From NCBI RefSeq assembly GCF_003334815.1, contig NZ_QOWO01000130.1: a DNA stretch of 416 nt; one strand, given 5' to 3'. This document shows, piece after piece, positions 1 to 416 of the stretch. The stretch comes from Escherichia coli. GTDB lineage: Bacteria; Pseudomonadota; Gammaproteobacteria; Enterobacterales; Enterobacteriaceae. A program made the translations under genes and the position numbers. Each line of letters begins with the position of its first letter. The stretch's first letter is position 1. The notes under the pieces were generated by a model. The model worked only from the letters and a program-made list of their open reading frames with translations, was not told where the DNA came from and did no database searches.

Positions 1-416
1 GAAACCGGCTTTGACGGCCGCACACAGCGTTATCACCACGACCTGACCGGCAAACTTATCCGCAGCGAGGATGAGGGTCTGGTCACCCACTGGCACTATG
101 ACGAAGCAGACCGCCTCACGCACCGCACCGTGAAGGGTGAAACCGCAGAGCGGTGGCAGTATGACGAACGTGGCTGGCTGACAGACATCAGCCATATCAG
201 CGAAGGGCACCGGGTGGCGGTGCATTACAGGTATGATGAGAAAGGCCGGCTGACCGGTGAGCGTCAGACGGTGCATCACCCGCAGACGGAAGCACTGCTC
301 TGGCAGCATGAGACCAGACATGCGTACAACGCGCAGGGGCTGGCGAACCGCTGTATACCGGACAGCCTGCCCGCCGTGGAATGGCTGACCTACGGCAGCG
401 GTTACCTGGCAGGCAT
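1..416 (+). CDS. rhs: Rhs-family YD-repeat protein, internal fragment of the conserved core (partial at both ends)
   Basis: Frame +1 is open across all 138 codons. Frames +2 and +3 hit stops early (TGA at 41-43; TGA at 12-14), and two of the three reverse frames contain stops. The translation has repeated YD-type motifs at a spacing of about 21-31 residues: RYHHDLTGKLI (nt 28-60), WHYDEADRLT (91-120), WQYDERGWLT (154-183), YRYDEKGRLT (226-255), and degenerate HAYNAQGL (319-342) and LTYGSGYL (385-408). From memory the peptide closely resembles the E. coli-type Rhs core (rhsA/B/C-like), but the paralog cannot be assigned from this core-only fragment, so the symbol is given at family level. There is no Met codon in frame, consistent with an internal fragment. 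Confidence 0.93.

Follow-up and report, generated by a model that had tools for sequence, protein, structure and literature searches.

The YD repeats of RhsA from Escherichia coli were described in earlier literature, and the repeat consensus xxGxxxRYxYDxxGRL(I/T)xxxx, with a period of about 21 residues, is quoted in a passage of PMC7259588. This paper was the sole match to the exact consensus string in a search of the open-access literature. In the Rhs toxin container the YD motif is described as the strand-to-turn transition of each β-hairpin (bioRxiv 10.1101/2024.02.26.582050).

Shells have been solved for a number of Rhs effectors of type VI secretion systems (T6SS), namely Tse5 (8cp6), RhsA of P. 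protegens (7q97), Tse15 (8uy4) and the Rhs core of S. bongori (8qjd). E. coli RhsA shows strong homology to this group across the YD core, although the effectors with solved shells belong to other species and carry other toxin tips. The match to Tse5 has an E-value of 7e-128, with the best stretch (residues 286-916) covering the region analysed here, and that to 7q97 an E-value of 3e-83. Based on this homology and the published description, RhsA would adopt the β-hairpin shell, or cocoon, fold. The YD shells of teneurins and of Tc-toxins (TcC/YenC2) are very distant; in the sequence search they match only the C-terminal Rhs core (query residues ~1142-1250, E-values 1e-24 to 5e-4) and the region considered here is left unaligned.

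The current analysis deals with a stretch of 416 nucleotides, referred to as the window. RhsA and RhsB of E. coli K-12 show no difference from it, the nucleotide identity being 100%, and the published consensus and the period of about 21 residues fit the units that it encodes.

Identity and genomic setting of the window

Many complete E. coli genomes have annotated rhsA and rhsB genes that agree with the window at all 416 nucleotides. Frame +1 is open throughout the 416 bases, and positions 1-416 of the plus strand lie inside the coding sequence of rhsA (= rhsB), comprising codons 667-805 of the 1377-residue RhsA. This corresponds to nucleotides 1999-2414 of the K-12 rhsA coding sequence (4134 nt) and to positions 6001-6416 of the rhsA locus examined (L001), where the coding sequence spans 4003-8136 (WP_000015300.1). 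Judged by its sequence, the window is an ordinary piece of the YD-repeat core of the known polymorphic-toxin shell gene rhsA/rhsB, and both the gene and the repeat have been known before.

The window is present in 3882 of the 5426 complete E. coli genomes. At the median, near-identical places number 3 per genome, and 6 once diverged paralogs are counted. In K-12 the same sequence occurs in rhsA and rhsB. It is thus a multi-copy segment, which fits the way the name 'rearrangement hot spot' arose.

The GC content changes sharply over L001 4003-12416, being 61.5% in the window, 59.5% in rhsA and 39% downstream of rhsA. The gene yibA lies directly 3' of rhsA, and YibA reportedly neutralises the RhsA C-terminus (PMC3150448). 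The downstream region also contains orphan pseudogenes annotated as 'RHS repeat-associated core domain', which are truncated at the N-terminus, and a pseudogene of the immunity protein Imm57. On the minus strand, frame -3 is open over the entire window (L001 5893-6465) and gives an ORF of 190 residues with a GTG start, which is probably a mechanical by-product of a coding sequence with 62% GC.

The original prediction, made from the letters alone, had taken the window to encode successive YD repeats, and the domain assignments bear this out. The Pfam family RHS_repeat (PF05593) is assigned twice in the translated window (E-values 3.9e-5 and 3.9e-4) and many more times in the full gene, RhsA as a whole having 14 such matches, 12 of them with E-values of 0.001 or better (residues 201-1377). 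The parts of RhsA outside the window include the Rhs core-end domain PF03527 (3.8e-14), the demarcation motif PxxxxDPxGL in the form PVTNTDPLGL, and a toxin tip assigned to Ntox34 (3.1e-42). The N-terminus (L001 4003-4200) begins with MSGKPAARQGD... and so contains a literal PAAR string; in the N-terminal region a stretch PVNPLLGA resembles the PVxxxxGE autocleavage motif found at the N-terminus of T6SS Rhs proteins.

YD units and the register of the shared words

Repeat units were delineated with a profile built from RhsA itself (HMM and PSSM), and 19 HMM domains result, of which 18 are gapless. The characteristic columns of the profile are G1, R5, Y6, Y8, D9, G12, R13, L14 and T/I15. The statistics reported below are based on the 18 gapless HMM-defined units and, with 6 clear extras, on 24 units, in each case over 18 gapless columns; the units that are most degenerate lie outside this set. 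An iterated PSSM drifted to matches shifted by half a unit because glycine recurs at columns 1 and 12, and it has been retained solely to show that no register fits residues 779-799.

Five YD units are recognised in the window, all on the plus strand. Four start at residues 672, 692, 713 and 737 (spacings of 20, 21 and 24), and the fifth, which is degenerate, starts at 768. Unit 1 (residues 672-689, GRTQRYHHDLTGKLIRSE, nt 16-69) is supported by the HMM and PSSM and by the Pfam RHS_repeat match at window residues 14-46, and its L-T-G (nt 43-51) occupies columns 10-12. Units 2, 3 and 4 are likewise recognised by HMM/PSSM and Pfam. Unit 2 (residues 692-709, GLVTHWHYDEADRLTHRT, nt 76-129) has Y-D-E at nt 97-105, columns 8-10. 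In unit 3 (residues 713-730, ETAERWQYDERGWLTDIS, nt 139-192) the Y-D-E at nt 160-168 is again at columns 8-10 and is followed by W-L-T at nt 175-183, columns 13-15. Unit 4 (residues 737-754, RVAVHYRYDEKGRLTGER, nt 211-264) has the same arrangement, with Y-D-E at nt 232-240 (columns 8-10), R-L-T at nt 247-255 (columns 13-15) and G at nt 256-258 (column 16). Unit 5 (residues 768-785, QHETRHAYNAQGLANRCI, nt 304-357) has Y-N in place of Y-D. It reaches a PSSM score of 18.7 in this register only and has neither a Pfam nor an HMM domain match, which makes it the weakest unit. Within the window the pairs of units share 11-39% amino-acid identity.

The original prediction concerned short words that recur among these units, which it saw as a nucleotide-level echo of the protein repeat. 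The 9-mer TATGACGAA does occur at 97-105 and 160-168, the related TATGATGAG at 232-240 and the 8-mer CTGACCGG at 43-50 and 250-257, as had been given. For GGCTGACC the copy at 248-255 is correctly placed, while the second copy lies at 383-390 and not at 373-380. The three TATGA... sites all encode Y-D-E in frame +1. The (R/W)LTG coding ascribed to the 8-mers holds for 250-257, which follows R; the copy at 43-50 follows D and encodes D-L-T-G-K. Two further pairs of in-phase 8-mers that had escaped mention have been identified, TGGCTGAC (W-L-T) at 175-182 and 382-389 and CGGTGCAT ((A/T)-V-H) at 218-225 and 269-276.

Whether the words fall at equivalent places of the repeat, the yardstick that the original prediction set for itself, differs from word to word. 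The three Y-D-E sites share columns 8-10, and the R/W-L-T sites at 175-183 and 247-255 share columns 13-15. The two copies of CTGACCGG are out of register, with columns 10-12 for the one at 43-50 and columns 14-16 for the one at 250-257. The copy of GGCTGACC at 383-390 falls in none of the units recognised. It overlaps a W-L-T (residues 794-796, TGGCTGACC, nt 382-390, plus strand) that lies outside any recognisable YD unit; all registers over residues 779-799 are PSSM-negative, and no Pfam repeat covers the site in searches with the window or with RhsA.

A repeat search also identified a family of three 24-nt copies on the plus strand, extending over nt 96-254, that follows the motif YDxxG(R/W)LT at 96-119, 159-182 and 231-254. 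The copies share 67-75% identity and are spaced by 63 and 72 nt, which equals 21 and 24 codons. There is thus a weak in-register resemblance at the DNA level around this motif. Between units in general, the nucleotide identity is 41.5% in register and falls to 25-29% once one of the two is displaced, so the DNA-level resemblance is real.

The number of shared words does not rise above chance. The window has 6 pairs of 8-mers, as compared to 2.57±2.14 in dinucleotide shuffles (P=0.096) and 3.13 under codon permutation (P=0.15). Synonymous shuffling, which preserves the protein, gives 5.24 (P=0.41). The single pair of 9-mers compares with 0.67 in dinucleotide shuffles (P=0.39) and 1.41 in synonymous shuffles (P=0.74). 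The count of shared k-mers in the window is in no excess over chance.

These counts, non-significant against dinucleotide shuffles for 8-mers and 9-mers alike, could suggest that all the matches arose purely by chance, as a GC-rich sequence of 416 nt would allow, and are unrelated to the repeat of the protein; the out-of-register pair of CTGACCGG and the copy at 383-390 outside the units agree with such a view. As an explanation for the words as a whole it is nevertheless unlikely, since the codon phase is identical within each of the six shared 8-mer pairs, the Y-D-E sites share their unit columns, as do two of the (R/W)LT sites, and the identity between units drops when the register is shifted. 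The null that preserves the protein, moreover, roughly doubles the number of pairs given by dinucleotide shuffles. Taken together with phase and register, this indicates that the protein motif generates part of the matches. At the YDE and R/WLT sites the evidence speaks against pure chance, which still holds true for the CTGACCGG pair (43/250) and the copy at 383-390.

Codon choice at aligned residues and in rhsD

The original prediction had gone further and read the shared words as showing that the units arose by internal duplication and are still similar at the DNA level. In this reading the k-mers are what survives of homology at the DNA level after YD units were duplicated internally, relatively recently, or underwent gene conversion with one another. 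The common codon phase of all the shared 8-mers and the three-copy 24-nt family would agree with it, as would the slightly higher similarity of adjacent units, which have a nucleotide identity of 0.413 as compared to 0.388 for random unit pairs. The latter difference is marginal (permutation P=0.036) and is not seen at synonymous sites.

Codon identity at aligned identical residues does not bear this reading out, as it equals the expectation from codon usage. Among the 18 units the same codon is used at 298 of 730 such positions (0.408), whereas the synonymous-shuffle null gives 299±19 (P=0.51). With 24 units the figure is 482 of 1187 (P=0.60), and restricting the comparison to the units of the window gives 12 of 31 (P=0.73). 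Adjacent units share the codon at 48 of 103 positions, against 45.4±5.2 expected (P=0.35). The 8-mers common to equivalent unit columns across the gene number 32, where dicodon shuffles give 30.3±7.8 (P=0.45). Neither over all pairs nor over adjacent ones are the units more similar at synonymous sites than expected from codon usage.

The paralog rhsD provides a further comparison. It aligns without gaps, with 79% nucleotide and 80% amino-acid identity. Its three YD sites read TACGATGAA (YDE), TATGATGGC (YDG) and TATGACGAT (YDD), and no 8-mer recurs among them. The third residue of the Y-D-E sites corresponds to an unconserved 'x' position of the consensus. As the YD sites of rhsD differ from one another, the 9-mer match in rhsA is seen as a lineage-specific coincidence of codon choice. 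The CGGTGCAT pair (218-225/269-276) is also lost in rhsD.

Recent duplication or conversion is highly improbable in view of the synonymous sites, the same-column 8-mers and the missing 9-mer identity in rhsD, and the low amino-acid identity of the unit pairs in the window argues in the same direction. YD repeats are, in addition, common to teneurins and WapA of Gram-positive bacteria, so that any duplications would be ancient.

Source of the repeated words

The description of the words as degenerate codon-level repeats and not a tandem DNA array was right. Tandem Repeats Finder (TRF) returned no tandem repeat rows for the window and, for the whole of rhsA, four trivial rows of 9-11 nt with ~2 copies each and no relevant array. 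The rhsA units resemble true within-gene DNA tandem repeats in being periodic and in phase, with a spacing of 20-24 codons. They differ from them in having no TRF array, a nucleotide identity of ~41% and no similarity at synonymous sites.

A gene-wide feature has also been observed. In the rhsA core (L001 4003-7722) shared 8- and 9-mers are 1.5-1.7 times as frequent as predicted by synonymous or dicodon shuffles, nulls that keep the protein, the codon usage and the dinucleotides. The excess is as strong out of codon phase as in phase and is not seen at equivalent columns of the units. In selA and selB, taken as controls, an excess is also present but is weaker and falls short of significance. 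An echo of the repeat is ruled out as its source by the split by phase and unit column, the dicodon shuffle and the selA and selB controls. We read the excess as a higher-order oligonucleotide bias beyond the null models, which does not fully explain it. That it is instead a real word signature of a GC-rich and probably foreign-derived Rhs core, by word bias of the donor genome or selection on DNA words, and not a limitation of the null models, seems very unlikely.

The same unexplained excess, and the history of Rhs cores as substrates of recombination, could be taken to point to a functional DNA or RNA element overlying the coding sequence, for instance one that signals recombination, is bound by a protein or folds into a structured RNA. 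The probability of such an element is close to nil. An Rfam scan gave no match above threshold, no tandem array is present, the inverted repeats are merely 74% complementary and the words at the YD sites vary at synonymous positions in rhsD. The recombination of Rhs loci is accounted for by the long near-identical cores and not by short motifs.

The only Rfam match, obtained in a scan with a permissive E-value, was to the archaeal C/D-box snoRNA sR32 at window positions 229-277 on the plus strand. Its score of 16.3 bits compares with a gathering score of 40 (E-value 0.043), and the match, which lies inside the coding sequence, is attributed to chance. Two weak inverted repeats of 19 nt, 77-95/301-319 and 177-195/381-399, have arms about 200 nt apart and are probably due to chance as well.

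We consider it very probable, at roughly 95%, that the echo is a product of the conserved protein motif and of codon bias in the YD core of RhsA/RhsB, with no DNA-level homology between the units beyond that. Each unit of ~21 residues, xxGxxxRYxYDxxGRL[I/T]xxxx, would form one β-hairpin of the shell around the C-terminal toxin, and the Y-D and G-R-L-T residues would be kept by selection in each unit. The codons for these residues are few and strongly preferred: W has TGG only, L is encoded by CTG in 66% of cases and T mostly by ACC or ACG; two codons are available to each of Y, D and E. Conserved residues written with so few preferred codons would cause short identical words to recur in phase between units.

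The identity of the TATGACGAA pair would then be a coincidence of the expected order. From the codon usage of the gene, two Y-D-E triplets coincide with a probability of 0.152, and any pair among the three sites with one of 0.405. The words CTGACCGG and GGCTGACC have 5 copies each in the rhsA core and are among its commonest 8-mers, an abundance that reflects the dominant codons CTG, ACC and GGC; they recur both in and out of the unit register.

An echo that stems from the motif and from codon bias has no independent bearing on duplication. An ancient origin of the YD units by duplication is plausible on general grounds, and the synonymous sites lend no support to a recent one. The significance of the present observations is small, since the gene, the YD repeats and the consensus belong to earlier literature, cited in the passage of PMC7259588 referred to above, and shell structures have been solved for homologs. 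In rhsA the similarity at synonymous sites does not exceed the prediction from codon usage, and for repeat proteins the in-phase recurrence of k-mers is to be regarded as evidence of DNA-level duplication only where it does.
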